DNA of 64,000 nt from a virus. Lineage: Duplodnaviria > Caudoviricetes. The notes under the pieces are model-generated. The model was given only the letters and a program-made list of their open reading frames with translations, had not been told where the DNA came from and searched no databases. The stretch lies in IMG/VR virus record IMGVR_UViG_3300020577_005315, positions 29,521 to 93,520 of that record; one strand, given 5' to 3'. Shown here in pieces: positions 9,833 to 37,806 of this stretch (position 1 is its first letter; every line of letters starts with the position of its first letter). Both the position numbers and the translations under genes were made by a program.

Positions 9833-11782
9833 GTGCCGCCGATCATCCCGTCAGGGGACTCATACGTCACGCATTTAGACGTGAAGTACAACCCGATGCT
9901 GGTGCTGGCCGTGGGCGAGACAGTTTGCGCCTACTCGCCGGCTGCGTGCTGTCGTACACCGCCCACAGATTGTCGTGAGTTTTGCGGTGGGACTGCTTAT
10001 CAAAATGACGGCGTGGCTGCTAGACCTGCAGTTCTTACTATAACTGACAAAAGTGGTAGCCATTCGTGGTTGAATAAGAAGTATAGCGTAGTTACACCGG
10101 TGTCTCGCTTGGCGGTGGGTGCGGTAAGTTACACTTACAGTACGTACCAAGTTGACGCCAGCGGCACTCCTCATTTTTTAGAAGAGACGTTTAATCCAGA
10201 AAACATCAGAAGAATTAATATCAACCCGTGTGGTGGTGTTCGTCAGTACTCCAACAGCTCGGCACCCCACAATCGGTTCACATACGACACGCAATACCTG
10301 GACTGGGTCACTCCGTTCCTATACTGCACAGGTAACTACGTAGGATCTGGAGGCGCAGATTACCACAGTAATGACTGTTGGCTATCTGAAGGATTCGAGG
10401 TTCCGCCTGGTTACCCAAATGGGCCGGATTTCTTACTTGAGCTCATGTTATATCACGCACCTGTTGCAATGTCTGGGGATTGTAGTGACTTAACTCAGGT
10501 GTTGGACCCGGCGTATGATGCTGAGTCATGGCGTACGACTTGTAATAGTACGTGCTGCACTGCTGAAGTCGTAGTAAATTCGACACACACTGGGCAGCCG
10601 GCTGTAATTCCTCTGTTTCAGTACGGATGTAACCCGCTACGAATGCGCGTGGTGAATTACCCGTTGCAATTGATTCACAGTCGAGGCGGTGTTAACGGTA
10701 TACCTCTGGTCGAAACGAAGGAGGTAGTTAATGTAGACCTGGACATAACTGAGTCCTATATAGGTTGTCCCGGACTACTTGGCGGTACCATTTTGTACTG
10801 GTCTTTGAATGGGGCCGCACCTCAACCACTGACTCCGACTACTGGTTTAGTACGCGGCCTTTGGAATACTCCGTCTTTTGATTACACCATCTCAGCCACT
10901 CCTATTAATTTCCCCCAGTACAGTGACGGCAATCCAACGCTGAATGTGTTTGGTCCCAGCGACCATTGTTACCGCGAAAAGGTCTGGGACGCCCGCACCA
11001 AGACCTTGTACCAACATAGTGGAGAGCCCAATCCGCCGTCACAGCGTGTGCTGTGGTACGTCAGTCGTCGTACTTACCCGGCGGACATTAATCCGTTCAT
11101 CGGATATACCGCCTCGTTCTCATGCTCGCCGCTGGACGTCACCATCGTCGATCTTGATGGTAACACACATCGTATCACCAGCTCGTACAATAGAACCGGA
11201 TCGGTGATCGGTGTCGTTGGGTATAACGTCCAATACACCAAGGTGTTGGTGCAGGCCAACTCAGACGTGGTCACTAGTGATTGTGTAGTTCCGTGCGAAG
11301 ACAACACACACGGCCCAGTCGAGACTACGACCTACGATATGACGTTCGGGCCAGTTCTTAAGACCGTCACGCCACGTTTGTCTCCGGTGTTGGCTACGTT
11401 CGGCACGGACACGCGACTGGTTCGCGACCCGACAACCTGCTGCAACGGCTCTAGTCTCGTCGTCCCAGACCCTACGACGGCGTGCAAGCCCACAGACGGT
11501 CAGTCCGCGATCCTCTCGGTGAACGGTCATAACTACGTCGGCTCTTGGGTGGTGACGTATAATCAGCCAGACGGATTTGCCGCCATATTGAGTGTAAGCG
11601 GCGCTGACGGCTACTTCACCGTTAACTTCAATGTAAACGCCTATGGAACCATCACTACTGGCATCTATTGGGTCGATCACGGAAATACCCTGCCAGGCGG
11701 TCTAGGGCCTACCGTCAACTGCGGTCCTCCCATCGTGTTTTCCGGAATCATAGATGGAACCCTGATCACGGTAACGACGTAA
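9833..11782 (+). CDS. Cys-rich putative tail fibre / receptor-binding or decoration protein
   Basis: Long ORF (GTG 9833, 1 nt after the upstream stop, preferred over ATG 9782); beta-rich with many C/CC; visibly AT-richer than its neighbours; follows baseplate genes. Confidence 0.45.
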   Translation: MPPIIPSGDSYVTHLDVKYNPMLVLAVGETVCAYSPAACCRTPPTDCREFCGGTAYQNDGVAARPAVLTITDKSGSHSWLNKKYSVVTPVSRLAVGAVSYTYSTYQVDASGTPHFLEETFNPENIRRININPCGGVRQYSNSSAPHNRFTYDTQYLDWVTPFLYCTGNYVGSGGADYHSNDCWLSEGFEVPPGYPNGPDFLLELMLYHAPVAMSGDCSDLTQVLDPAYDAESWRTTCNSTCCTAEVVVNSTHTGQPAVIPLFQYGCNPLRMRVVNYPLQLIHSRGGVNGIPLVETKEVVNVDLDITESYIGCPGLLGGTILYWSLNGAAPQPLTPTTGLVRGLWNTPSFDYTISATPINFPQYSDGNPTLNVFGPSDHCYREKVWDARTKTLYQHSGEPNPPSQRVLWYVSRRTYPADINPFIGYTASFSCSPLDVTIVDLDGNTHRITSSYNRTGSVIGVVGYNVQYTKVLVQANSDVVTSDCVVPCEDNTHGPVETTTYDMTFGPVLKTVTPRLSPVLATFGTDTRLVRDPTTCCNGSSLVVPDPTTACKPTDGQSAILSVNGHNYVGSWVVTYNQPDGFAAILSVSGADGYFTVNFNVNAYGTITTGIYWVDHGNTLPGGLGPTVNCGPPIVFSGIIDGTLITVTT

Positions 11783-24637: not shown

Positions 24638-26176
24638 ATGAGCTGCTTCGACTATTTTAGCAAAATCGAGGGCGTAGAGGAGGGGACGCCGTCGATCTTA
24701 CCGTGTCACAGTTGTAGGTCGAAGTCTGCCGTCGCCGTCGTGCTCCAGGACGATGTCGGGTATTGGGTACGGTGCACCGCGTGTCAGTGGGAGGGGGACC
24801 TGTTCCAACACGCCTCGAACTTCGTTCGGTCGCAGCAGTCTCAATCCGACGAGCCGCTGTCGACCGACGAGTGTATCAAACACTTACGGTCGTTGGGAGT
24901 TAAATTCCGACGGGGGTGTACGGCTAAACGTGTGACTCAAAGCTATCTGAGGCACGTTAAGGCGCGACAGGCGTTCCTGAACCTACAGGCCGCCATGAAG
25001 AAGCGGGCGGTGTCCAAGATCAATACCCCGGCCGTCGCGTACTACAACCTACAACTCAACCCGCACGTCGCTGATATGTGGTGGTGTGCCAGTCCGGCTG
25101 AGGTCAACTCCTACCTGTTCAGACACACCGACAACGAAACGCACTTTGCACGGACAGCCGGCTGCATCACCGGCGAGGACCGTCAGATTCCGACGGTCGT
25201 CGCACCCTACTTTGACGCCATCGACAGACTGGTGGCTGTGGCCCTACCAGCGTGGAATCAGTTTAACAGTTGGGTCACACGTTGCCTGCCTGCGGGCGGC
25301 AGCGGCGTCGCGTTCCGCAGGGCCGCTGGGTTCAAGTGTGCAGCGTGGGGAGATGAGGGGAAGATCTGCACTGAGCCAGCCGTCCCGCTGTTGATGCAGG
25401 CGCACAACGCGAGCAGCAACATCTCCCTCCTGCCGATGGTCGCCGTCATCGATCCGAGCACGCCGAGGGAGGTGGCGTCGATCAAGAAGAATCTACCCAG
25501 AAAGAACTGGACCATCCTCCACACGCCGGAAGCCCCGGTGTCGACGTACTACTTCGCCCGCACCCTGAACGTCGATCTCGAGCGTGTCGAACCGGTAGAT
25601 CTACGTAACCGCAGGTTCAATCGAGTTATTCGTCGGACGTGGGTGGAATCGATGGCGGAGAGAACGCTACAGCACCTCAGGTCGGGGTCGACCCAGAAGG
25701 AGGTGTTAATCAAGTCGTCCCCGTTCGGCCAGTGGACCGACGACGTCATCGAACGTGTCGGTAAGTACTTGCCGAAGATGGAGTACGACGACCTCAAGCT
25801 GTTGCTGGCGAAAACGGTGCACCACAGGCGGGCCCGCGTATCGCCCGAGGTGACTATCGTTGAGACGCCGGCCGGATGGCTGTGGGACGAGCAGCAGCAG
25901 ATCGTCGCCACCACGTACCCGGTGAACGTTCAGGCTTATACTCGAGGACGCAAGGTCAGGCACAAAGGCGAGGTGTGCGTGACGCACAACGGGAAGATCG
26001 TGGCGTTGGTTCCGTTCGACTCAGGTCGGTTCCGTAAAGACCCCGTAGCGGTTATGGAGACGGCTGTGATGAGGAAGTCCCTGGAAGACGGCCGTCTGTC
26101 CAGGGACTACTGCAAAGAACCGGAACCGATCATCGCCAACCACGTCGCGCGGATCGCGATGTTCTTTAGCCGTTAA
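24638..26176 (+). CDS. hypothetical protein with N-terminal primase-like zinc-binding domain
   Basis: ATG 24638 avoids overlap with the divergent gene; PCHSC...WVRCTACQWEGDLF. Confidence 0.55.
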   Translation: MSCFDYFSKIEGVEEGTPSILPCHSCRSKSAVAVVLQDDVGYWVRCTACQWEGDLFQHASNFVRSQQSQSDEPLSTDECIKHLRSLGVKFRRGCTAKRVTQSYLRHVKARQAFLNLQAAMKKRAVSKINTPAVAYYNLQLNPHVADMWWCASPAEVNSYLFRHTDNETHFARTAGCITGEDRQIPTVVAPYFDAIDRLVAVALPAWNQFNSWVTRCLPAGGSGVAFRRAAGFKCAAWGDEGKICTEPAVPLLMQAHNASSNISLLPMVAVIDPSTPREVASIKKNLPRKNWTILHTPEAPVSTYYFARTLNVDLERVEPVDLRNRRFNRVIRRTWVESMAERTLQHLRSGSTQKEVLIKSSPFGQWTDDVIERVGKYLPKMEYDDLKLLLAKTVHHRRARVSPEVTIVETPAGWLWDEQQQIVATTYPVNVQAYTRGRKVRHKGEVCVTHNGKIVALVPFDSGRFRKDPVAVMETAVMRKSLEDGRLSRDYCKEPEPIIANHVARIAMFFSR

Positions 26177-27876
26177 TACCTAGGGTCGGGCGGCGTCGGA
26201 GCGTTGACCAGCGACGGCCACCGGCATGTGTATTCCCAGAGGCAGGCGGCGGCGTAGTTGACGGCAGCCGTGAAGTCATCGGACACGTGCTCGCTGCTGC
26301 GCCGGATGCGGAACGTACCGCCAGTGGGTGTGTCGACGCGGTCCTCGACGAGTGAGATGAAGTCCCACAGAAGGCCGGGTTGGTTGTCGTCCACGTAGTC
26401 GTACTGGAAGAACTTAACCTTGCCCTGTTTAATGGCCTCGCACAAGAACTGCAGCGTCTGAGCCTTGTGCATGACGTAGTAGGTACGCTGGCGGCTGGCG
26501 GTGCCGACGCGTTTCTCAACCATCCCGCCGCCGGTGACGCCCTGGTACGCCATAGGCACGATGCGCTCGGCCGGCCACCCCATGTACGTCAGGGCCGACT
26601 CGGACGCGGTGCCGATACCACCCTGGATGTCGTGGGCGATCAGGTGGGCCCCACACGTCTGGGCGATCTGCGCAATCTTCTTGGCCTCACCGACGCGGTC
26701 CGTCGACGGCTCAAACTGGAACCCGTAGAAGACTTCGGCCGACCCATCTGGGCCCAGACCAACGGCAGCGCCTTTGGTACGGCTCACACCCTCGTCACCG
26801 CCGCCGCCCCAGTCGATCCCCAGGACGACCATCGAGTAACGTCGACCCCGGGACCGGGCCTCTTCGATCGTGTTGGGGCCCAACGTGGCGGCGCGTTTCA
26901 GGTCGTCGATGGACACCAACTTGTACGCGCTGTCCCACGCCTCACCCAAACACTCATTATAGAATTTGGCGGTCGTGTACCCCTGTCGGCCGTCGCGGTA
27001 CGACAGGAACAGCTTCCACTTCTGCGGTTGGGCGTAGTGGAACGGGAAGATAATCTGCGGGGCGTAGAACCCGAGGACGTCGCGCTTACGCTCCGGATAG
27101 CGGTGGACCCACCGGCCTAGACGCGGCCTAACAGGCTTCTGACACCGGTGACATACCGTCCCGGGCTCGAACTCCGAGATGTCGTCCCGATACTCACCTA
27201 TCATGGAGATCAAGTGGCCTTCGGGCTCCAGGCAGCAGATGTTGTCGAATCCGCAGTGGTGGCACTTGACCTGCCAGACGCCCTGACTGGACGTGAGCCA
27301 GGTTCGTTCCAAGTACGTGTCCAACGTCTTGCTGGTGCCGCTGACCCACGTGCTCGGCGTCTTGCACGCACTCATGGTCTGACTGAGCACGGGTAAGTGT
27401 GCGGAGTCCATGTCCTGCGCCTCGTCGACGAACAGGACGTGGGCCGTCTTGGACCGTGTGCGCTCGGTGTCAGCCAGGGCGTACGTGAAGAACACCATAG
27501 ACCCGTTGGCGAAGCTGCGCCTGCGGACGTTGCCGACGGTGTTCGTCTCGCACAGCATCGACCGGATCGGGCTGTCCTCGATCATCGGTTTGAAGATGGT
27601 GGACGACAGGGTGTCGCTCTGTTCCTGGCGCGGGACGACGACGAGGACCTTGCGGCCCTCGATCATGGCGCACTCGAGAATCAGTCGGCCGATGATGGAC
27701 CGCGTCTTCCCGATCTGTCGGCTACTGCGGTGGACCACAAGCGGCGATATGGACGTCGAGAACACCTCGTCAAACGGGAAGTGGTCGTCCAGCCGCATGG
27801 GGGCGCGGTCGATGGTCAAGAGCTGCGGGAGGTAGGGAACCAGGTTACGGACTTTTCCGCTCTCGTCGAGCTGCAC
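26173..27876 (-). CDS. terL: terminase large subunit
   Basis: Walker A SRQIGKT, Walker B LFVDEAQD, SGT coupling motif, CHHC/CHRC zinc knuckle (lambda gpA-like), FYNECLGEAW, nuclease LGIDWG. Confidence 0.88.
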   Translation of the reverse strand: MQLDESGKVRNLVPYLPQLLTIDRAPMRLDDHFPFDEVFSTSISPLVVHRSSRQIGKTRSIIGRLILECAMIEGRKVLVVVPRQEQSDTLSSTIFKPMIEDSPIRSMLCETNTVGNVRRRSFANGSMVFFTYALADTERTRSKTAHVLFVDEAQDMDSAHLPVLSQTMSACKTPSTWVSGTSKTLDTYLERTWLTSSQGVWQVKCHHCGFDNICCLEPEGHLISMIGEYRDDISEFEPGTVCHRCQKPVRPRLGRWVHRYPERKRDVLGFYAPQIIFPFHYAQPQKWKLFLSYRDGRQGYTTAKFYNECLGEAWDSAYKLVSIDDLKRAATLGPNTIEEARSRGRRYSMVVLGIDWGGGGDEGVSRTKGAAVGLGPDGSAEVFYGFQFEPSTDRVGEAKKIAQIAQTCGAHLIAHDIQGGIGTASESALTYMGWPAERIVPMAYQGVTGGGMVEKRVGTASRQRTYYVMHKAQTLQFLCEAIKQGKVKFFQYDYVDDNQPGLLWDFISLVEDRVDTPTGGTFRIRRSSEHVSDDFTAAVNYAAACLWEYTCRWPSLVNAPTPPDPRY

Positions 27877-28270: not shown

Positions 28271-31200
28271 ATGGTTAAGCACAACAGCAAGCTGCCCACG
28301 ACCTGTGTGAAGCGCGACGGCGCCACCGTGCCTTTCGACGGCGAGAAGATCGTCAAGGCAATCCGTCGCTGCTTCGACAACGTCTGGGCGGACGAACGTA
28401 CTCTCGCGGACAAGAGCGTCGACGACGTCGTCGGCAACATCTACGGGCGGGTGCTCAATGTGATCGCGGCCCAGAAGGCCGACCAAGTCAGCGTGGAAGA
28501 CGTCCAACGGTTCGTCCTCCACGTCCTCTGGTCGGACAAGCTGTACGCCGCGGCCGAGCACTACCAGAACTACCGAGAGGACCGGCGTAAGGCCCGGTTC
28601 AACACGGCCGTGACCCCCGACCGCCTGGAAACGGTCAAGGCGGACCAGAAGCACTTCCCGACGGACCTGCAGTACTACCAGTTCATCGGAAAGTTCTCGC
28701 GCTGGCGGGACGCCGACCGCCGCCGGGAGACGTGGAAGGAGACGGTCACGGAACGGGTGATGCCCTGGTTCAAGGGCTTGCCCGGTGCCCAGCTCGAAGA
28801 CGCCGAGTGGAGCATGCTGCAGGACAGCATGTACAACCTCGAGTCGTCCCCGGCCATGCGGGTCGTGCAGATGGCCGGGCCGGCGCTGCAGAGGGAGCCG
28901 CTGGGATGCTACAACTGTCTGGGCGTCGAGACGGCGTTTATCACCCGTAATGGTGTGAAGACGTTTCGAGACTTCAAAGACGGCGACACTACCGTGGTGC
29001 TTACGCACACCGGCTCCTGGAAGAACGCTGTCGTTCGAAACTACGGCGTCCAGAAGCTCTACACACACCACATCAATCGCTCACGCACCAAAGTGACTGT
29101 TCGCGCCACGGCCAACCACCGCTGGGTGCTGAGTGACGGTAGTGTTCAAACCGGGCTCAAGGCGGGCGATAAGCTCCACTTGCCGCCGTGTCCGTCGATC
29201 AACTGGAACTACGACGCTGCAGAACCGCTGGAGAAGCTCTACTGGGCGTACGGATACGTGTACGGCGACGGTACCCGCGTCAAGAAGGACGGTGAGTACA
29301 CGTACTCGATGGTTCGTCTCTGTAAGAACGACCGTGGGTACCTTGAGCGATTCGAAGAGCTCGGTTTCGGCTCCAGTAATCCGTTGTCGTGTAAGGGCGA
29401 CCCGATCGTCTACACTGGTAGCTACCTCAAGACTCTCCCCGAGTTGACCGACGACTTGGGCGTGATCCGGGCTTTCGTACGCGGCTACCTGGACGCGGAC
29501 GGCGGTAGTGGTCACCCCCAGTCGCCGAACGACTTCTCCTGCATTCAGGTGACCGGCGAACAGTCTATCGAGTTCGTTCGACGCGTGTTTCCCGTCGCGG
29601 GCTACTACATCACGCGCGAAGAGGTTGTCGACAAGGACACCAATTTCGGTCCGCGCTCGGCTCTGACAATTCGGTTCGGACTGACGAACAACTTCGGCGT
29701 TGCGACGAACCGGTTCTACGGGTTGACGTCGAACGTCGAAGACGACGGTAGTCCGCCGGAAGAAGTGTGGTGTCTCGAGGTCGAAGACGACCACTCGTTC
29801 GTGCTCCCGTCAGGTGTCGTCACTGGAAACTGCGCTTATGCACCGATTGTCGACAGAACGTCATTCTCTGAACTCCTGTACGTACTCATGCAGGGGACGG
29901 GGATGGGGTTCTCAGTCGAAAACGACTACATCGACGAGCTGCCTCGCATCAAGAAGCAGCGTAACACCCCTCGGGAACGGATCGTCGTCCCGGACAGTAC
30001 TGAGGGGTGGTGCAAGTCGTACGACCGCTACCTGGAGCTCCTCTGGGACGGGCGTGAGGCGGACATCGACGTCTCGTTCGTCCGCAAGGCGGGCAGCCGC
30101 CTGAAAACTAAAGGCGGGAAAGCATCCGGTCCGGGGCCTTTCCTGGAGCTCTGCTCGTTCGCCAGCAATCTGTTCAAGTCGCGTCAGGGTAAGTACCTGA
30201 CCGACCTGGATTGTCACGACCTGGCCTGCATGACGGGTCGGATTGTTCAGGTGGGCGGCGTCCGTCGGGCGGCAGAGATCTCCTTGTCCGACCTGAACTC
30301 GCGGGCGATGCGGGACGCCAAGTCTGGCGCGTGGTGGACCAACAACCCGCAGCGGTCGATGGCGAACAACTCGGCCGTCTACGAGGAGAAGCCGGACTCT
30401 ACGACGTTCATGGAGGAGTGGCTGGCGCTCACCAAGTCCCGCAGCGGCGAGCGCGGTATCTTCAACCGGCAGGCCGCGCAGCTACACAAGCCTAAGCGTC
30501 GTAAGATGGTACGATTTGGCGTTAACCCGTGCGCGGAAATATTACTTTCGCCTCATGGTTTGTGTAATCTCAGTATGTGTATCGCACGTCAGAACGATAC
30601 CGCCGAATCGCTACGACGTAAGGTCCGTGCCGCCACATACTTCGGCAAGCTGCAGTCGCTGTGTACGAACTTCAATTACGTCCGGTCCGACTGGAAGCGT
30701 AACGCCGAAGAGGAGCGTCTCCTGGGTGTGGACATCACGGGTCAGGCCGACTGCCCCTTACTGAGGTTCAACTCTCAGACCGATCGGGCCGCTCTCCTCC
30801 GGACGCTCCAGGAGGAGGTCCTGTCAGTCGACCGGATGCTGGCCGAACGCTGGGGCATCAACGTCTCCGCGGCAGCTACGACCGTAAAGCCGGGCGGTGA
30901 CTCTGCGGTGTTCTTCGACTGCTCTTCGGGCGTGAGCCCGCGTTTCAGCCGGCACCAGATCCGGTGGGTGCGAGAGTCGAAGGACAGTCCCGTGGCCCGC
31001 TTCCTGATCGACAGCGGCGTTCCGCACGCCCCGGCCCCCGAGGCCCCGGATCGCCTACTGGTGTTCGGGTTCCCGAAGGCTGCCCCGACCGGCTGTACGC
31101 TCCGTGACGACATGACCGTGATCGACCAACTCGAGAACTGGCTGACGTGGAAGGAGAACTGGGCCGAACACTCCGTGTCCGCCACCATCTACGTCGGCGA

Positions 31201-31450
31201 CGACGAGTGGCTGACGGCCGGGAATTGGGTCTACAACCATTTCGACCAGATCACGGGCCTGTCGTTCCTTCCGCGGGACAACGGCACCTACACGTACGCC
31301 CCGAACGAGGAGATCGACGAGGCGAAGTACGGCGAGATGATGAACTCCTTCCCTGACCTCAACTGGGCGAAGCTGTCCGCCTACGAGGAGGAGGACATGA
31401 CCGAGGCCGCTATCACGTTCGCCTGCGTGGGCGGCGGCTGCGACAACTAA
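28271..31450 (+). CDS. nrdJ: class II (adenosylcobalamin-dependent) ribonucleotide reductase with ATP-cone, intein-interrupted
   Basis: ATP-cone VKRDG..VPFD; RRETWKETV, YN^C, LMQGTGMGFS, GGVRRAAEISL, NPCAEI, CNLS, TVKPGG, C-terminal ACVGGGC. Confidence 0.92.
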   Translation: MVKHNSKLPTTCVKRDGATVPFDGEKIVKAIRRCFDNVWADERTLADKSVDDVVGNIYGRVLNVIAAQKADQVSVEDVQRFVLHVLWSDKLYAAAEHYQNYREDRRKARFNTAVTPDRLETVKADQKHFPTDLQYYQFIGKFSRWRDADRRRETWKETVTERVMPWFKGLPGAQLEDAEWSMLQDSMYNLESSPAMRVVQMAGPALQREPLGCYNCLGVETAFITRNGVKTFRDFKDGDTTVVLTHTGSWKNAVVRNYGVQKLYTHHINRSRTKVTVRATANHRWVLSDGSVQTGLKAGDKLHLPPCPSINWNYDAAEPLEKLYWAYGYVYGDGTRVKKDGEYTYSMVRLCKNDRGYLERFEELGFGSSNPLSCKGDPIVYTGSYLKTLPELTDDLGVIRAFVRGYLDADGGSGHPQSPNDFSCIQVTGEQSIEFVRRVFPVAGYYITREEVVDKDTNFGPRSALTIRFGLTNNFGVATNRFYGLTSNVEDDGSPPEEVWCLEVEDDHSFVLPSGVVTGNCAYAPIVDRTSFSELLYVLMQGTGMGFSVENDYIDELPRIKKQRNTPRERIVVPDSTEGWCKSYDRYLELLWDGREADIDVSFVRKAGSRLKTKGGKASGPGPFLELCSFASNLFKSRQGKYLTDLDCHDLACMTGRIVQVGGVRRAAEISLSDLNSRAMRDAKSGAWWTNNPQRSMANNSAVYEEKPDSTTFMEEWLALTKSRSGERGIFNRQAAQLHKPKRRKMVRFGVNPCAEILLSPHGLCNLSMCIARQNDTAESLRRKVRAATYFGKLQSLCTNFNYVRSDWKRNAEEERLLGVDITGQADCPLLRFNSQTDRAALLRTLQEEVLSVDRMLAERWGINVSAAATTVKPGGDSAVFFDCSSGVSPRFSRHQIRWVRESKDSPVARFLIDSGVPHAPAPEAPDRLLVFGFPKAAPTGCTLRDDMTVIDQLENWLTWKENWAEHSVSATIYVGDDEWLTAGNWVYNHFDQITGLSFLPRDNGTYTYAPNEEIDEAKYGEMMNSFPDLNWAKLSAYEEEDMTEAAITFACVGGGCDN
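28916..29830 (+). mobile_element. intein (305 aa) with LAGLIDADG homing endonuclease
   Basis: Block A CLGVETAFIT, block B ATANHRW, LAGLIDADG-like AYGYVYGDG and FVRGYLDADG, block F VWCLEV, block G HSFVLPSGVVTGN|C. Confidence 0.92.
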
Positions 31451-31461
31451 GCGACAGGCTT

Positions 31462-31497
31462 CGACTCCGGGCTTCGACAGGGGCCTGGAGTCGTTTT
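31462..31497 (+). terminator. intrinsic terminator after nrdJ
   Basis: CGACTCCGGGC...GCCTGGAGTCG-TTTT. Confidence 0.65.
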
Positions 31498-31500
31498 ATG

Positions 31501-31545
31501 AAAAACGCGTGAAAAATTTGACACGCTTGCTCCGAGCAGTAACAT
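31501..31545 (+). promoter_or_regulatory. sigma70-like (early) promoter with upstream A-tracts
   Basis: AAAAA tracts, TTGACA (31518-23)-N16-TAACAT (31540-45). Confidence 0.6.
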
Positions 31546-31593
31546 GAGTCGTTAGTGAATTCCTTGCGACGCCTAGCAGATCGAGAGGAAGAC

Positions 31594-32205
31594 ATGCAGC
31601 TCGTAAGCGACTTTCGCGACTACTACGACTGGGCGTTTGACCGTGACGGGGTCGTGTTCGACAGGATGGCTCGTAACAGCGGTCCAAAGAAGGCTGCTCA
31701 GTTCAGCATCCTCCGCGACACACTCGGACACCTGACTCCGCCCGTCGGACCTGTAAACTGCGTACTCGGGACGAAGTGGCGGGGTAAGACGATCGACAAG
31801 GTCGTTGCCTACACGGACGACGCGGCTCACTGCGGCGAGGGTAAAGAGCTCGTCACACTAGACTCAGACGGCTGGCGGACCAACACTACGCTCTGTTCGG
31901 CGTATTTAGGTAAGCCGGGGCTGAGTTGGAGAAAACTACACGTAGGTCCGCACGTGTTCTGGATCGAGTACACGTCCACCGAGTCGTGGATGTCGAACGT
32001 GGGTGACGGAACGTGCGAAGTCATCGGCGTCGAGATGGACTTTGGCATCACAATATACCCGCTCCTGGCGATCGACTTCGTCCTGGACGACGAGATGTAC
32101 GCGGTGGACCTGAACGTGGCTCCGGGGATCAAAGGCAGCGGCGTCGAGAAGCTCCTCCCGGCTGAGCAGGTGGTCGAAGCGATCAGACGTTGGTGTGCTT
32201 GGTAA
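31594..32205 (+). CDS. compact RimK/LysX-like ATP-grasp protein
   Basis: SD GAGGA; HCGEGKELV loop, SWMSNVGDG (cf. RimK WRSN..GG), LLAIDFV, YAVDLNVAPG (cf. E.N..PG). Confidence 0.65.
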   Translation: MQLVSDFRDYYDWAFDRDGVVFDRMARNSGPKKAAQFSILRDTLGHLTPPVGPVNCVLGTKWRGKTIDKVVAYTDDAAHCGEGKELVTLDSDGWRTNTTLCSAYLGKPGLSWRKLHVGPHVFWIEYTSTESWMSNVGDGTCEVIGVEMDFGITIYPLLAIDFVLDDEMYAVDLNVAPGIKGSGVEKLLPAEQVVEAIRRWCAW

Positions 32206-32219
32206 AAAGGTGGTGTGTA

Positions 32220-32645
32220 GTGAGCGAGCACAGTCGAGTCACCGTGACGACGGCGGCGACGGACGCCGTCAACAAAGTGTGCAAGATCGAGGACGAGATC
32301 GTGTCCGAGAACTGGCTGCCGCCGGCGTGGGTGGCGGCCAAAGGCCCGCAGTTCCCGTCCGTACAGCCCGTCATGGTCCTCATGTGGCGGCACTGGTACG
32401 CGCTGGTGACCGCGGTGAAGGACAAGAGCGTTCGCTACAACACTTTACGGATCAGGGAGGCGCTCACCGACCTCGCAGCCGCGGCCATCAAGGGGGCGGT
32501 CGACCTGGACGCCATCGAACGTGGTGGCGGGCTGAGGGACGTCGACTCGCGTAAGGCCGGGGAACTGCTCACGTCCGTCAACCCGAGTGCCGTAGACTAC
32601 GACCTGACCGAACCACCGGACATCGAGTCCGATGCAGACGAGTAA
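32220..32645 (+). CDS. hypothetical protein, acidic C-terminus
   Basis: GTG 32220 after AAGGTGG; helical ORF. Confidence 0.55.
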   Translation: MSEHSRVTVTTAATDAVNKVCKIEDEIVSENWLPPAWVAAKGPQFPSVQPVMVLMWRHWYALVTAVKDKSVRYNTLRIREALTDLAAAAIKGAVDLDAIERGGGLRDVDSRKAGELLTSVNPSAVDYDLTEPPDIESDADE

Positions 32646-32651
32646 CGCATG

Positions 32652-32676
32652 ACCCCGGGGCGACCCGGGGTTTCTT
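32652..32676 (+). terminator. GNRA-loop hairpin / weak terminator directly before the DEEG array
   Basis: ACCCCGGG-GCGA-CCCGGGGT-TTCTT. Confidence 0.65.
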
Positions 32677-32691
32677 CGTTTAGGGGGTACG

Positions 32692-32910
32692 ATGCAGATA
32701 CAAAGGCACCTCCTGTGGGTGTCGGGACGTGGTGACGATGATAAGCTGATAATCGGGATGAATGTTTTAGTGTTTGGTGGAAAGTACAGCGAAGTCGTAA
32801 TCGACGCAGTGAAGTTCACGTACGAGGAGGTCACAACACTCGACGCCGACTGGTTTATCGATCACCTGCCGGAGTTCGACGGACTGTTCGTCTTTGACGA
32901 AGAGGGCTAA
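32692..32910 (+). CDS. DEEG-tag protein 1
   Basis: Ends DWFIDHLPEFDGLFVFDEEG*; SD AGGGGG. Confidence 0.85.
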   Translation: MQIQRHLLWVSGRGDDDKLIIGMNVLVFGGKYSEVVIDAVKFTYEEVTTLDADWFIDHLPEFDGLFVFDEEG

Positions 32911-32912
32911 CG

Positions 32913-33125
32913 ATGACTCGAACCAGCGAGCTGTCTCGGTGTCTCACGTATGACCACGAGTACTACTTCACAGTGATGAATCAATACGACTGGCACACTT
33001 GGTCTAGGATCACCGTGTCAGTCGACAGCCCGGAGTTGAACGGACACTGGATCCGGCACCTGACGGCGATTTGGTTGAATCTTCCCAGGAACGACGAACT
33101 CTACGCCTACGACGAGGAGGGGTGA
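32913..33125 (+). CDS. DEEG-tag protein 2
   Basis: Ends AIWLNLPRNDELYAYDEEG*. Confidence 0.85.
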   Translation: MTRTSELSRCLTYDHEYYFTVMNQYDWHTWSRITVSVDSPELNGHWIRHLTAIWLNLPRNDELYAYDEEG

Positions 33126-33127
33126 GC

Positions 33128-33358
33128 GTGTACTGCCGATCGAGGAGTCATAGCGATAGAACGGAGCTACTGTACAGATACCTACACAGTCTGACGGTGG
33201 CGGTAGACACCCGCTGTGGTAGAGACGTCGGCGTCGTCGTGTACGCGTTCAGTGGACGTGACCGCCGCGACGACACGCCCGAGACACAACAACTGACAGT
33301 ACTGTGGCGCGCTCTGCCCAGGGGAAAGAAGCTGTTCACCCCGGACGAGGAGGGTTAA
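33128..33358 (+). CDS. DEEG-tag protein 3
   Basis: GTG start 2 nt after the stop; ends VLWRALPRGKKLFTPDEEG*. Confidence 0.85.
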   Translation: MYCRSRSHSDRTELLYRYLHSLTVAVDTRCGRDVGVVVYAFSGRDRRDDTPETQQLTVLWRALPRGKKLFTPDEEG

Positions 33359-33360
33359 CC

Positions 33361-33555
33361 GTGTCGGTACGTCTCACTGGAATGTTCCGCTACTACGGCA
33401 CGACGTTGGTCGCCGTCGATAACGTCGTCAAGTGCGACGCCAACTTCATCGTATCACACGGTGGACCCGATGCGGCACAGGATGTAGAGTTCGATCGCGT
33501 ATGGAGACTTTTGCCACATCGGGGAAACCTGTTCACCCCGGACGAGGAGGGCTGA
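33361..33555 (+). CDS. DEEG-tag protein 4
   Basis: GTG start; ends RVWRLLPHRGNLFTPDEEG*. Confidence 0.85.
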   Translation: MSVRLTGMFRYYGTTLVAVDNVVKCDANFIVSHGGPDAAQDVEFDRVWRLLPHRGNLFTPDEEG

Positions 33556-33557
33556 CC

Positions 33558-33788
33558 GTGTCGACGTGTCTCATCAACATGTATCGCTATTACGGCACGA
33601 CGTCTTTCGTAAGAATGTATCGCTATTACCACATGGCGTCAGTCGCCGTCGATAACAACGTCACGTGCGACATCGACCTCATCACATCACACAGCGGATG
33701 CGTTGTGGCGTATGATACAAAGTTCGAACGTGTGTGGAGTAGTCTGCCACAGATGGAAGACCTGTTCACTCTGGACGAGGAGGGCTGA
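33558..33788 (+). CDS. DEEG-tag protein 5
   Basis: GTG start; ends RVWSSLPQMEDLFTLDEEG*; internal MYRYY duplication. Confidence 0.85.
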   Translation: MSTCLINMYRYYGTTSFVRMYRYYHMASVAVDNNVTCDIDLITSHSGCVVAYDTKFERVWSSLPQMEDLFTLDEEG

Positions 33789-33790
33789 CC

Positions 33791-33988
33791 GTGTCGACGT
33801 GTTTCATCAACATGTATCGCTATTACGGCACGCCGTCGGTCGCTGTCGACAGTTACGACAAGAATGACGCCGGCGTCATCACGTCACACAGTGGATACAG
33901 CTGCTCGGAGCGGGATACAGAATTCAACCGTGTGTGGAGACTTTTGCCGCAGATGAGTGACCTGTATGAACTGGACGAGGAGGGGTGA
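33791..33988 (+). CDS. DEEG-tag protein 6
   Basis: GTG start; ends RVWRLLPQMSDLYELDEEG*. Confidence 0.85.
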   Translation: MSTCFINMYRYYGTPSVAVDSYDKNDAGVITSHSGYSCSERDTEFNRVWRLLPQMSDLYELDEEG

Positions 33989-33990
33989 TC

Positions 33991-34248
33991 GTGTGCGGAA
34001 GCGTCGTATTGTCGGTGTTGAGAGAGGTTTGGGGCGGTGGGTGGTTTGGCATCCAACTGTGCATCGGGGACCACCCTCGGAGCGAAGTCTGGTCGATGCC
34101 GGCGATCAATTACGTAGACTTCCGACACACCCTGCCGGACTCGAGGTTGTTTCGTGAAGAAAGCGACGCCCGGCGCGGAACCTTCGTGAGGTTGGTCTTC
34201 GCGCTACCGAACCGGCGGGAGCTATACGTCTTCGACGAGGAGGGCTGA
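33991..34248 (+). CDS. DEEG-tag protein 7
   Basis: GTG start; ends RLVFALPNRRELYVFDEEG*. Confidence 0.85.
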   Translation: MCGSVVLSVLREVWGGGWFGIQLCIGDHPRSEVWSMPAINYVDFRHTLPDSRLFREESDARRGTFVRLVFALPNRRELYVFDEEG

Positions 34249-34249
34249 C

Positions 34250-34468
34250 GTGCGTCACGTGTACAGGATTCAAAGGGGGTACCCGGAGCAGTACAACGCG
34301 TTAGCTGTGTACACCACAACGCCAACGCCTAGTGTGGTGGAGGCCGCGGATCTGGCCGTACCGCACGTTCTCGGGTTGAGAACCGAGCGAATTAACGAAG
34401 TGTTGATGAAAATCTGGTGGAATCTACCCTGTACCGAAGAACTATACACCTACGACGAGGAGGGATGA
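34250..34468 (+). CDS. DEEG-tag protein 8
   Basis: GTG start; ends KIWWNLPCTEELYTYDEEG*. Confidence 0.85.
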   Translation: MRHVYRIQRGYPEQYNALAVYTTTPTPSVVEAADLAVPHVLGLRTERINEVLMKIWWNLPCTEELYTYDEEG

Positions 34469-34470
34469 CG

Positions 34471-34716
34471 GTGAGTCGAGAAATTGCGGACATGGCGAGG
34501 ATGTCCGACGCGAGCGGAAACGCGTTCACGTATGCGGCGATGGTCGTGTACAGGCCGGCGGACAACGAACGCGAGACGACACGGCACAAAACAATCATCT
34601 GCGTGAACAGCGTGAGATGGTCGACTGGTAATCACCGGTCAGGTTACAGGCTGAGAACGCTGTGGCGGAAGTTGCCGGACCAGGACGATCTGTTCACGTG
34701 GGACGGGGAGGGCTGA
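34471..34716 (+). CDS. DEEG-tag protein 9 (DGEG variant)
   Basis: GTG 34471 (or ATG 34465); ends TLWRKLPDQDDLFTWDGEG*. Confidence 0.85.
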   Translation: MSREIADMARMSDASGNAFTYAAMVVYRPADNERETTRHKTIICVNSVRWSTGNHRSGYRLRTLWRKLPDQDDLFTWDGEG

Positions 34717-34717
34717 C

Positions 34718-34945
34718 ATGATCCTGTGGATCGAGCGGTGTCACGGCTGGGCCATACTTACCGGCGCACGCTCCGGTCACCACCTGACGGTATGTCGTCG
34801 AGACAGTGGGGGAGGTTCGCGTTCCCGGACGCACATTTACGCGCCGAAGTCTATGGAACACAGGGACGTCGAACACGACTGGCAGCATCGTTGGTTCGAT
34901 CTACCCAAAGGTGGTGAACTGTTCACGTGGGACGAGGAGGGGTGA
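34718..34945 (+). CDS. DEEG-tag protein 10
   Basis: Ends HRWFDLPKGGELFTWDEEG*. Confidence 0.85.
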   Translation: MILWIERCHGWAILTGARSGHHLTVCRRDSGGGSRSRTHIYAPKSMEHRDVEHDWQHRWFDLPKGGELFTWDEEG

Positions 34946-34946
34946 C

Positions 34947-35165
34947 GTGCGTCAGACTTGGTTCCCTGTACGAGACTTCCGCGGTTACAATTACAATACC
35001 GCGCAAAATGAGGCGTTTGTAAGATTCTTTCACCCTTCACCGCCGTGGTGGCGAAAAGTGAACTGCGTCGTTAACGTGTTAAGCGTAAACATGACTAAGT
35101 TTAGGAGGATTTGGGAAATACTTCCTAACGGGTCAGCCCTGTTCGTTTACGACGAAGAGGGATGA
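34947..35165 (+). CDS. DEEG-tag protein 11
   Basis: GTG start; ends RIWEILPNGSALFVYDEEG*. Confidence 0.85.
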   Translation: MRQTWFPVRDFRGYNYNTAQNEAFVRFFHPSPPWWRKVNCVVNVLSVNMTKFRRIWEILPNGSALFVYDEEG

Positions 35166-35439
35166 GAACAAAATGAAAATAGTAAGTTCACCAACTTACT
35201 AAACTATGCCCTAAAAAACACCCCAAATCGGGGTGTCGGAGCCGTCGATATATTGCAGCTGTCTTTCTTCTTCTTCTTCTTCTTAAGAAATATGGTTAAG
35301 AAGAAGAAAGCCGTGTCTTTTTCCTCAAAGCAGGAAAAAGACACTACAGAGTTACGGAAAATCGCCCCAAAACGAACCTCCAAGGATATGTTATCTATAC
35401 CTGGCGCTGCGCGCTCCGCAGTGCGGACTGGATGCGAGG
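35166..35439. other. AT-rich non-coding region with (TTC)6 tract and 13-bp inverted repeat; candidate origin/regulatory region
   Basis: Largest intergenic gap in the window; TTCTTCTTCTTAA (35274-86) / TTAAGAAGAAGAA (35296-308); CAAA-N15-CGTCGATATATT at 35224. Confidence 0.45.
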
Positions 35440-36285
35440 ATGTCAACCGACCGAGTCGTGAAGATCGACCCGTCAAAGTTCCCTGACGGCTGGATTAGGG
35501 TCCCATTTCGCATTACGCCGATTCTGAGACAGCCTGGAGCCATATCTCGAACTTCCCGCCTCTTGACGGCGTTCGCCTTTCCTAGGCCCGTTTATTCGCA
35601 AATCCTGCCGTGGTCGAAATTGAGCCTGGACGAGAAATGGGTTGCGGCTGCCTCGGTATGGTCTGGAATCCTGGAATCGCTCCTATCGTTCCCGGATTGC
35701 ACCGAGTCTCGACCAGATCTGAACTTCAAGAAATGGCGATCTTTAGTCAAACGGATGGCGCTGTGTACACCGCCGGGTTACGAGTTTACTTCCCCAGACG
35801 TAACACTCCCGTTCGCCTGCCACGTCGCCGTATGCCCGTTCTGTTACGCTAGGCGCGTCTCTGAGCTCGTAAAAGACGTAAATAGGGTTCTGACCCAGGC
35901 CCCACCCAGAAAACTCCTCTACGCGTATTTAATCGCAAATAAGGGGTCACGGCAAAATACAATCAATTTATTGCGACGCCTCAAACCGACTGGTGCCGTC
36001 GGGGTGTTCACTCCGAGATCCGTCGATGAGGACGAGTGGTACTCACGTATCGTAGGGTTGACTTTCGACCACAAGCAGGTAGCATCTGATGAGTCGACTC
36101 GACTCAGACACCGATACGACGTCAGCGACTTCCTGGTCCGTAAGCTCCTCTACCCGCGCATCTGGTCGTCGCGGAACCAGGTCAGGTACGTCGCAGGAGC
36201 TCTTCATACGTTCTGTAACCACAAGAATTTAAGGACGATCGCTACTTACGGCATGGCCCGTCAGTCGTCGTCTGAGGGAGGATGA
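35440..36285 (+). CDS. hypothetical protein with CxxxxCPxC zinc-binding motif
   Basis: 281 aa; FACHVAVCPFCYARR; SD GAGG. Confidence 0.6.
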   Translation: MSTDRVVKIDPSKFPDGWIRVPFRITPILRQPGAISRTSRLLTAFAFPRPVYSQILPWSKLSLDEKWVAAASVWSGILESLLSFPDCTESRPDLNFKKWRSLVKRMALCTPPGYEFTSPDVTLPFACHVAVCPFCYARRVSELVKDVNRVLTQAPPRKLLYAYLIANKGSRQNTINLLRRLKPTGAVGVFTPRSVDEDEWYSRIVGLTFDHKQVASDESTRLRHRYDVSDFLVRKLLYPRIWSSRNQVRYVAGALHTFCNHKNLRTIATYGMARQSSSEGG

Positions 36286-37806
36286 ATGAAGAAGCCTTAC
36301 GTGTGGGTGATCGGGGACCTGATGCTCGACGTCGAGGTCCGGTCCGAGCGGTTCAGGCGGACGCCGGAGGATGCCGTCGCTCCCGTCCTTCCGTCCGTAC
36401 CCGGTAGTAACGCCGTGACCTATCTGGGCGGCGCTGGCAACTTGGCGGCTAATCTGGCGACTCTGGGCTGTCGCGTCGACCTGTTTAGCCAGTTCGACCC
36501 AGACAAACTGCCTGAGGACTGCGCGCCGAGCGACTTTCCGTCCGTCGACGGCCTGACCCTTCCGTGGGTACCCACCAAGACCGCCCCGCTTACAGTTAAG
36601 CGACGGTACTACGAGGGTGACCGCCTGGTCGCCCGCGTCGACTCGGATTACCAAGCGTCGCCGATCACCGTCGCCTCGTTACGCGAGACGGGTTATCTTC
36701 AGAGTGGGGCTCTTCCCGACGCGATCGTCCTCACCGACTACGGCCGCGGTACGATCAGCAAGGCGTCGGCTCAGGGGTGGGCCAAGTTCGCCGAGGACGA
36801 GAAAATCCCGATTTACGCCGATCCTAAGGTGGGTCGTTCGTCGGTCTGGGACAACTGCCGCCTGACCTGTATGGTGTGTAACTGGGACGAGGCTACCGAC
36901 GTGGTCCGCGAGAATCTCACGCGTGGTGCTACCGACGAGTGGGACGACGTGTGGGATAACGACGATCCGAAATCTGACGTCCGCGCCGCTAAGTTCGTCC
37001 AAAACGTGCAGACCGCCTGGGGCCCGTGTCATTCCCTCGTCGTCAAGCGTGGTCAGTACGGGTCTACCTGGCTCAAAGAGGGTGCGAGGGGTCGACCGGT
37101 CGTCGGTCACGTCCCCGCGATTCGCAGACAGGAGGTCATCAACGTCCAGGGCGCCGGGGACACCTACCTGGCTGGTCTGGTGACCGCGATGTGTCGTGGC
37201 GCCAAACTCGAGGAGGCGTGCGTCTACGGCTCAGCAGCCGCTGGCGTCGCCGTGTCGCACAAGGGCACGTACGCCGTCAAGCGTGAGGAGGTCCTCGACC
37301 TGATCCGCGCCCATTACGCCGACAGGGACGAGCGACGCGTCGTGCCGATCGGTAAGGCGATCGAGACGGCCAACCGCATGCGAGCTTTCGGGTTCAAGAT
37401 CGGGTACACCAACGGGTGTTTCGACGGCCGCCTACACGCCGGCCACCGACACACCTTGCGGGAAGCCAAGGCGCACTGCGACTATCTGTTCGTCGGCGTT
37501 GACTCCGACGCCCGGGTGCGTAAACTGAAGGGGCCCGACCGGCCTCTGGTGGACGAGGTCGAGCGAGCCCGGTCGGTCGACAGCCTTCACTTCGTCGACT
37601 CCGTGTTCGTCTTCAACAGCGACCCCGCTGACGTCGTCAACGCGATCAAGCCTGATGTTTTGGTCAAGGGCGGCGATTACGCGCCCGAGACCGTCCCGGA
37701 GGCCGAGGCGCTCAAGGCTTGGGGTGGTAGACTGCACATCGTGCCGTCGGTGGACGCAGAGCGTACGTCCGCGTTCGTTAACAGGGTCCGGGGGTTGAAT
37801 GGCTAA
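36286..37806 (+). CDS. hldE: bifunctional HldE-like sugar kinase / nucleotidyltransferase
   Basis: PfkB domain VIGDLMLD, GGAGNLAANL, DYGRG, DPK, GAGDTY; cytidylyltransferase-like TNGCFDGRLHAGH, LKGPDRP, KPDVLVKGGDY. Confidence 0.88.
   Translation: MKKPYVWVIGDLMLDVEVRSERFRRTPEDAVAPVLPSVPGSNAVTYLGGAGNLAANLATLGCRVDLFSQFDPDKLPEDCAPSDFPSVDGLTLPWVPTKTAPLTVKRRYYEGDRLVARVDSDYQASPITVASLRETGYLQSGALPDAIVLTDYGRGTISKASAQGWAKFAEDEKIPIYADPKVGRSSVWDNCRLTCMVCNWDEATDVVRENLTRGATDEWDDVWDNDDPKSDVRAAKFVQNVQTAWGPCHSLVVKRGQYGSTWLKEGARGRPVVGHVPAIRRQEVINVQGAGDTYLAGLVTAMCRGAKLEEACVYGSAAAGVAVSHKGTYAVKREEVLDLIRAHYADRDERRVVPIGKAIETANRMRAFGFKIGYTNGCFDGRLHAGHRHTLREAKAHCDYLFVGVDSDARVRKLKGPDRPLVDEVERARSVDSLHFVDSVFVFNSDPADVVNAIKPDVLVKGGDYAPETVPEAEALKAWGGRLHIVPSVDAERTSAFVNRVRGLNG

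Follow-up and report, generated by a model that had tools for sequence, protein, structure and literature searches.

The internal proteins of T-even phages (IPI, IPII, IPIII and their polymorphic alternatives) are diverse defence-countering proteins that have only a capsid targeting sequence in common (PMC3012670), and the cargo proteins of encapsulins are loaded via C-terminal peptides onto a shell with the HK97 fold (PMC7925596). Here we describe a family of phage mini-proteins that also combines one constant segment with otherwise variable sequence. One of its loci, array A, is a run of 11 genes at positions 32692-35165 of the window, by which we mean the whole stretch of DNA analysed, 64,000 nucleotides (nt) long and corresponding to bases 29521-93520 of a 93,520-nt IMG/VR virus record with an estimated completeness of 47%. 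The source is an uncultured, giant tailed phage with a genome of roughly 200 kb, as calculated from record size and completeness, and array A is a real set of 11 translationally coupled genes whose products end in a constant C-terminal module of about 26 residues.

The T-even internal proteins are the closest working analogue of this family, which is not a member of that group. Both comprise small, diverse, fast-evolving phage proteins with one short constant segment, encoded at loci that are polymorphic between related phages. The T4 signal, however, comprises about 10 residues at the N-terminus and is removed by the prohead protease, whereas the module described here is C-terminal, follows variable N-termini and is laid out as a helix and a strand; on this ground, membership in the T4-type internal proteins was rejected. 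The two show no sequence similarity, and array A does not lie in a head-gene cluster. Encapsulin cargo peptides are likewise constant C-terminal peptides on otherwise unrelated proteins, docking to one HK97-fold partner, but cargo genes lie beside the shell gene, whereas no capsid or shell gene adjoins array A, and the cargo systems have no tandem arrays, acidic Gly end or dual-coded ribosome-binding site. To our knowledge, encapsulin targeting peptides are also shorter, with a consensus unlike that of the module.

Short C-terminal peptides that address a protein to a hub are known outside phages as well: SspB has a ClpX-binding tail, and the EEVD-COOH end of Hsp70 and Hsp90 is read by TPR clamps. 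These proteins resemble the present family in joining a variable or substrate-binding body to a short, partly acidic C-terminal peptide that plugs into one hub; they are single genes rather than diversifying arrays, however, their motif sequences differ from the one found here, and no ClpX-like or TPR partner was identified in this phage. At the level of the gene junction, the nearest parallel is the textbook coupled operon with a Shine-Dalgarno sequence inside the end of the upstream gene, where GGAGG precedes by 5-10 nt a start that abuts or overlaps the upstream stop. The same arrangement is present in array A, with the difference that the same four codons recur at every junction and are kept as amino acids even without coupling.

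A constant C-terminal module on a family of small phage proteins

Array A consists of 11 consecutive open reading frames (ORFs) on the plus strand (Table 1), which start 1-3 nt past the preceding stop or overlap it as GTGA or ATGA. The identical 11 genes were called by an independent gene caller on two contigs from other samples and sequencing runs (L008 and L009; 100% and 99.94% identity to the window). An earlier note on this DNA, drawn up from the sequence alone, had listed 11 consecutive ORFs of about 64-85 amino acids (aa) and had counted LP, L[FY] and D-x-E-G-stop in all 11 and W in 9; the gene calls bear out the former, and our own motif counts agree with the latter. All products end in WxxLPxxxxL[FY]xxD[E/G]EG-stop, in which L, P, L, D, E and G are invariant across the alignment of array A, W is missing from its fixed position in units 1 and 7 only, and unit 9 alone departs from DEEG. 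When back-translated into a DNA pattern (LPx4L[FY]xxDEEG-stop), the motif was matched 10 times in the window, against 0.00 matches expected from 100 shuffles. Every ORF of the 93.5-kb record that ends in [DE][DEG][DE]G carries the motif, and none of them is on the minus strand.

A profile built from the 11 units identified a second locus, array B, at G000:C1:17993-19870 (equivalent to L001:3994-5871), 42 kb upstream of array A in the same record and 9.6-11.5 kb before the window start. Its five members (B1, 70 aa; B2, 193 aa; B3, 73 aa; B4, 141 aa; B5, 110 aa) have longer N-terminal parts than those of array A, and their genes, 4-30 nt apart, are more loosely spaced. In B5 the motif is split or duplicated, as WARLP...LY followed after about 20 residues by ELFVFDEEG. 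Searched exhaustively with HMMER, a set of 1.84 billion representative proteins yielded two new proteins besides the members already known from the record, and these two are encoded on the metagenomic contigs L016 and L015. L016 (8.1 kb) has 16 consecutive members at L016:1-4399 (Logan SRR8942260; the array is also present on L017-L019), L015 (1.1 kb) has five, and L024, found by a word-based search, carries a B2 orthologue (53% identity) with further members on either side. The L016 contig has no other DNA in common with the record and is either a missing part of the source phage or part of a close relative; small membrane-protein genes lie downstream of its array, and the four of its members in which the motif is internal have CPxxF before it. 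Altogether at least 39 members were counted, 16 in the record and 23 on three other metagenomic contigs.

No described family was recognised in the earlier note, and the searches lead to the same result. Pfam gave no match for the units or for 35 aligned members, and neither did PHROGs, PADLOC or a profile search of the PDB for the family. Foldseek comparison of a low-confidence AlphaFold2 (AF2) model with the PDB, BFVD and the Atlas returned only noise, and Atlas look-ups of B2 and of one member extended beyond the motif were empty. The exact DNA pattern gave only single, chance-level hits in IMG/VR, in JGI/ENA metagenome contigs and in 185,579 GTDB genomes, and none of these hits ends an ORF of at least 40 codons. 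No member was found in cultured phages by blastn or tblastn, no further member was found when IMG/VR was scanned for close relatives of B2, and literature searches turned up no description of the motif. Judged by these sequence comparisons, the family is undescribed, lineage-restricted and multigene.

With the 39 members aligned, the conserved block spans about 26 residues, so that the constant end was confirmed but is longer than the last 17-22 residues first taken as the tag. Relative to the Leu of LP, it begins at position -4 with a hydrophobic residue (V, L, F or I in 36 of 39 members) and continues with W at -3 (29 of 39), L at 0 (38 of 39) and P at +1 (39 of 39). The loop that follows LP has 4 residues in 22 of the 39 members and 5-23 in the others; after it come L (38/39), F or Y (39/39), V or T (36/39) and then an aromatic residue, Pro or Leu, and the acidic end reads D (39/39), E (30/39), E or D (39/39) and G (35/39). 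The module is thus laid out as a helix (hxxhWxxL), a Pro, a loop, a strand (L[FY][VT]x) and, at the acidic end, D-x-E-G. Ahead of the Pro, hydrophobic residues are spaced i, i+3, i+4 and i+7, as in an amphipathic helix. AF2 predicted a β-hairpin and the tag helix for unit 1 and the tag helix only for unit 4, with the LFxxDEEG end as coil in both models, at low confidence (predicted local distance difference test score (pLDDT) of 68 and 53, respectively).

Dual-coded gene ends and diverging N-terminal parts

The acidic end is encoded as GAC GAG GAG GGN, followed by TGA or TAA, and GAG-GAG-GGN contains GGAGG, the Shine-Dalgarno site of the next cistron, 5-9 nt before its start. At each of the 10 junctions in the window, GGAGG or AGAGG was found 5-9 nt before a start located at -3 to +3, which is the configuration of translational coupling. 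All replacements of the first Glu (by Gly GGG twice, by Ala GCG and by Leu CTG) use a codon that ends in G, and GGAGG is retained, which is a constraint at the RNA level. Tails without a coupled gene (unit 11, B1, B4 and B5) retain the DEEG peptide with GAA codons, which weaken the ribosome-binding site; GAA is used in 4 of 6 uncoupled tails versus 1 of 26 coupled ones (Fisher p=0.002), and the retention of DEEG in the uncoupled tails is a constraint at the protein level. The dual-coded end is unusually clean.

The Leu and Pro codons of LP and the final Gly codons vary synonymously, just as had been claimed, with GGG over-used at the final Gly (16/32 versus 22% genome-wide). From this variation the earlier note had concluded that the tag is selected as protein rather than being a DNA repeat. 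That conclusion stands for the synonymous Leu, Pro and Gly codons and for the GAA-coded DEEG of uncoupled tails, but the invariance of DEEG is partly due to the RNA-level requirement for GGAGG. Compared with shuffled controls, the junction RNA forms less stable folds (z +0.4 to +1.6), and it has no match in Rfam; a structured RNA repeat was rejected on these two grounds. An unstructured junction is in keeping with an accessible site of initiation rather than with a structured RNA element.

Upstream of the module, the N-terminal parts of the 16 record members are coding sequence and not spacers, because codon usage scores best in the annotated frame in 16/16, with a codon model trained on long genes of the phage, and because GC content at third codon positions is raised in them (0.57-0.80). 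Once the last 26 residues had been cut off, pairwise comparison showed relatedness only among units 3-6 (Smith-Waterman z 3.5-18, with unit 3 related to units 4-6 at z 3.5-8.7), and the other 114 of 120 pairs have z<3. In a leave-related-out profile test against their own shuffles, 10 of 31 held-out N-terminal parts gave p<0.05 (1.5 expected) and 7 of 31 gave p<=0.01 (0.3 expected); unit 2 carries the family signal at p=0.003. The N-termini had been described as mutually unrecognisable except in units 4-6, which holds for those 114 pairs but has to be amended for unit 3 and for the weak homology in 10 of 31. In the pooled N-terminal parts, V, Y, W, H, C and R are over-represented and A, K, Q, L and P under-represented, which is a β-rich composition of globular type.

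The arrays turn over between strains. On L032, from another run, exactly unit 5 is missing, leaving 10 units, and unit 5 is about 79% identical in DNA to unit 4. Across the remaining 1.3 kb, L032 and the window differ at 7 bases, all nonsynonymous and all in the N-terminal part of unit 3, with 6 of the 7 in codons 45-49 (33260-33272; DRRDD versus NIHNN) and the other at 33189; L032 has adenine at 6 of the 7 sites. No second or donor copy of this patch is present in the record, which samples about 47% of the genome, and a diversity-generating retroelement was rejected, with neither an RVT_1 match nor a template repeat in that same sample. Changes that are clustered, all nonsynonymous and adenine-biased might reflect a targeted diversification mechanism. 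In array B, L026 and L027 are 100% identical to the record until 51 nt past the B2 stop (position 10534, corresponding to G000:C1:18878), where B3-B5 are replaced by about 450 nt with an untagged, coiled-coil-like ORF of 67 aa, and the large genes downstream of this breakpoint are only about 75% identical to those of the record. On L024, one more member stands between B1 and B2. The family grows and shrinks by tandem duplication and deletion, and the search for further members and copy-number change that the earlier note had proposed yielded both.

Between recent duplicates (units 4, 5 and 6 and the pairs on L016), the ratio of nonsynonymous to synonymous substitution rates (dN/dS) is 0.6-1.1 for the N-terminal part and 0.10-0.72 for the module, values that are noisy over such short segments; for the B2 orthologue pair (record versus L024), the overall omega is 0.45. 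Evolution of the N-terminal parts is almost neutral or diversifying. DNA identity between repeats is 61-79%, and frameshifted duplicates were rejected as the origin of the unlike N-termini, since there is no DNA similarity beyond the tags and units 3-6. In the simplest history, tandem duplication occurred repeatedly and all of the sequence except the module then diverged very fast. Diverged tandem duplicates are preferred over captured payloads because of the subgroup of units 3-6, the duplicate pairs on L016, the weak family-wide signal and the shared β-rich composition, and the suggestion that the units carry unrelated modules as payloads is accordingly not upheld.

Genomic setting of array A

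Array A sits between the ribonucleotide reductase gene and the HldE, SbcCD and helicase genes, in a neighbourhood that also contains genes for a DnaB-like helicase, a DNA polymerase and a UvsX-like recombinase; a baseplate wedge gene is present in the window as well. The features around it are collected in Table 1. The sigma-70-like promoter, a consensus match only, likely starts the transcription unit that contains the array, and the AT-rich spacer that closes it is possibly a terminator or promoter region separating it from the next operon.

Table 1 Positions in the window of the array A units and of neighbouring features; unit coordinates end with the stop codon.
Feature	Position	Strand	Description
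567-aa gene	26173-27876	-	GpA_ATPase (large terminase) match in the annotation of identical contig L030
Class II ribonucleotide reductase gene	28271-31450		followed by the terminator-like hairpin
Terminator-like hairpin	31462..31493	+	14-bp stem, then T run; after the ribonucleotide reductase gene
Sigma-70-like promoter	31518..31545	+	TTGACA-16-TAACAT; 10/12 consensus matches
216-aa gene	31555..32205	+	no Pfam, PHROG or PDB match
151-aa gene	32190..32645	+	directly upstream of array A
GC-rich hairpin	32651..32672	+	between the 151-aa gene and unit 1
Unit 1	32692..32910	+	72 aa; tail LFVFDEEG; stop TAA; W shifted by 2 residues
Unit 2	32913..33125	+	70 aa; tail LYAYDEEG; start 2 nt past the unit 1 stop
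Unit 3	33128..33358	+	76 aa; tail LFTPDEEG; distant member of the unit 4-6 subgroup; contains the strain-variable patch
Unit 4	33361..33555	+	64 aa; tail LFTPDEEG
Unit 5	33558..33788	+	76 aa; tail LFTLDEEG; recent duplicate; no counterpart in strain contig L032
Unit 6	33791..33988	+	65 aa; tail LYELDEEG
Unit 7	33991..34248	+	85 aa; tail LYVFDEEG; V instead of W
Unit 8	34250..34468	+	72 aa; tail LYTYDEEG; one strain single-nucleotide polymorphism, T62I, in the loop
Unit 9	34471..34716	+	81 aa; tail LFTWDGEG; Glu replaced by Gly (GGG), GGAGG retained
Unit 10	34718..34945	+	75 aa; tail LFTWDEEG
Unit 11	34947..35165	+	72 aa; tail LFVYDEEG, acidic end GAC GAA GAG GGA; no coupled gene 3'
AT-rich spacer	35166..35439	.	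274 nt; closes array A; small hairpins, (CTT)n run ((CTT)7-like); next gene starts at 35440
Short GC hairpin	~35218-35237		within the spacer
Inverted repeat	35313-35344		within the spacer
HldE-type gene	36286-37806		bifunctional PfkB kinase and cytidylyltransferase-like gene (heptose activation)

The 216-aa gene has about 50 homologues (33-55% identity) in the replication modules of large uncultured phage contigs (up to 188 kb), where they adjoin genes for RecA, EndoVII, RNase T, DnaB, primase and Pol III alpha; in relatives, a gene of 135-145 aa, similar in size to the 151-aa gene here, comes after the homologue. None of these loci has a C-terminally tagged array, and array A is therefore a lineage-specific insertion. 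The 216-aa gene was considered as a tag-modifying ATP-grasp ligase and rejected: it matches nothing in Pfam, PHROGs or the PDB, the RimK model matches nothing in the record, and its homologues occur without arrays.

Three observations concern the phage more widely. The HldE-type gene directly precedes Mre11/SbcD-like and SbcC-like genes, and the 567-aa gene, on the minus strand, is among the few exceptions in a plus-strand genome. The contig of a relative encodes a PF07596 (SBP_bac_10/DUF1559) protein (L014:15179-16072); such proteins are characteristic of planctomycetes, a hint as to the hosts that this group of phages may infect.

Possible roles of the constant module

The reading that we favour, tentatively and as somewhat short of probable, is that of a constant docking handle on variable specificity parts. 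Going by the sequences of the members, the module would be a shared handle through which the members bind one partner, from the phage or from the host, and would also close a small fold: the helix with its one hydrophobic face, the short strand and the acidic end would together bind the single partner, and the hypervariable N-terminal part would supply each member's own target. On this view the arrays might form a diversifying library whose members act as adaptors, inhibitors or decoys in host takeover or counter-defence and are made in near-equal amounts from one mRNA. The earlier note had proposed a modular library with a constant docking tag; one module on very unlike N-terminal parts of 38-167 aa is in keeping with that proposal, which needs revision in that these parts look like diverged duplicates.

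Several observations weigh against a docking handle. No partner of the constant module was identified; the phage sliding clamp was considered as the hub and rejected, there being no DnaN in the record. A likeness of L-h-x-h-[DE] to short linear motifs, for instance clathrin boxes or clamp-binding peptides, was set aside because so short a motif does not lend itself to a test. The AF2 models are of low confidence (pLDDT 53-68). Four L016 members run past the motif, with LP...LFVPD[LV]DE internal and followed by about 20-25 residues of helix-like sequence, so that the C-terminal tag, which had been called invariant, is so in array A but is held internally with an extra helix in these relatives; a free C-terminus is typical of the family and not universal. 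Loop length ranges from 4 to 23 residues. Most of the conserved residues (h, W, L, L, F and V) are hydrophobic and could be the core of a small fold. About one-third of the N-terminal parts hold a weak common signal and all share the β-rich composition, which fits one fold.

Much of this would be expected if the members were an ordinary paralog family, that is, diverged copies of one small domain of β-structure plus helix in which the tag is the conserved core with an embedded ribosome-binding site and has no docking role. We consider this explanation, the main rival of the docking handle, unlikely, while giving it considerable weight. Units 3-6 and the duplicate pairs on L016 show duplication followed by divergence, the held-out profile test is positive well beyond expectation, the N-terminal parts have a common composition rich in β-formers, and the conserved positions are hydrophobic with helical spacing; the variable loop and the extra C-terminal helix in four members are also what a domain, rather than a terminal peptide, would show. 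It accounts less well for the acidic end, whose D, E and G are kept even where no ribosome-binding site is needed and which is left unpacked in the low-confidence AF2 model, for the presence of the module on proteins of 61-193 aa with N-terminal parts that cannot be aligned, and for a dN/dS near 1 in those parts, which is unusual for a domain folding with a conserved core. By analogy to the T-even internal proteins (PMC3012670) and encapsulin cargo (PMC7925596), the module might instead be a virion address label that sends the mini-proteins into the assembling capsid for injection with the DNA. Array B lies among large ORFs, one of them with a weak virion-structural match, which would suit such a role; array A, however, lies in a nucleotide-metabolism and replication region, the tail is not found on any larger structural protein in the record, and the module has no sequence likeness to known signals, and we regard the idea as improbable.

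An acidic end with an invariant Gly on proteins of about 70 aa also recalls substrates of C-terminal modification or conjugation, either by RimK/LysX-type ATP-grasp ligation on the acidic end or in the manner of ubiquitin or Pup through the terminal Gly. This is very unlikely: the 216-aa protein encoded upstream has no family match and has homologues in the replication modules of array-less relatives, RimK and ThiF models match nothing in the 93.5-kb record (half of the genome being unsampled), and four members lack the terminal Gly. Ubiquitin-like and Pup-like modifiers were rejected on the last point, on the missing ThiF match and on the end being E-G and not G-G, and ligation of the RimK/LysX-LysW kind was rejected for want of a RimK-model match in the record. 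Least credible of all is that the repeat is conserved only as DNA or RNA, whether as a ribosome-binding site with its stop-start junction or as the boundary of a recombination cassette, and that the peptide is a by-product. GGAGG, stop and start are indeed identically arranged at 10 junctions, GGAGG survives amino-acid replacements, GGG is over-used at the final Gly, and one mosaic breakpoint lies 51 nt past a tag. Yet the upstream 20 residues (h, W, L, P, L and F/Y) have no role in initiation and are conserved with synonymous codons, DEEG persists with GAA and without a coupled gene, repeat DNA identity is only 61-79%, and there is neither RNA structure nor an Rfam match; the synonymous-codon pattern largely refutes such an artefact.

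If the module is a docking handle, a further step, which we find doubtful but worth stating, is that it is a portable address label for a single hub, be it a host machine or a phage assembly, and that the arrays are a self-expanding library of adaptors or decoys driven by an arms race, in which each new duplicate would carry its own ribosome-binding site.

The protein family is new, while its general kind, a polymorphic family of phage mini-proteins with one constant segment, is known. Giant phages contain hundreds of small orphan genes, and in one such genome a large share may belong to this family, which contributes 16 genes to the available 93.5 kb alone, with 16 more on the L016 contig. 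Should the docking handle be real, a 26-residue peptide could expose the hub to which an entire class of accessory proteins is directed and may serve as a cargo-delivery tool in that system. Should the family be a plain fold family, it would still be a new small domain and a clean case of coupling signals constraining protein ends.

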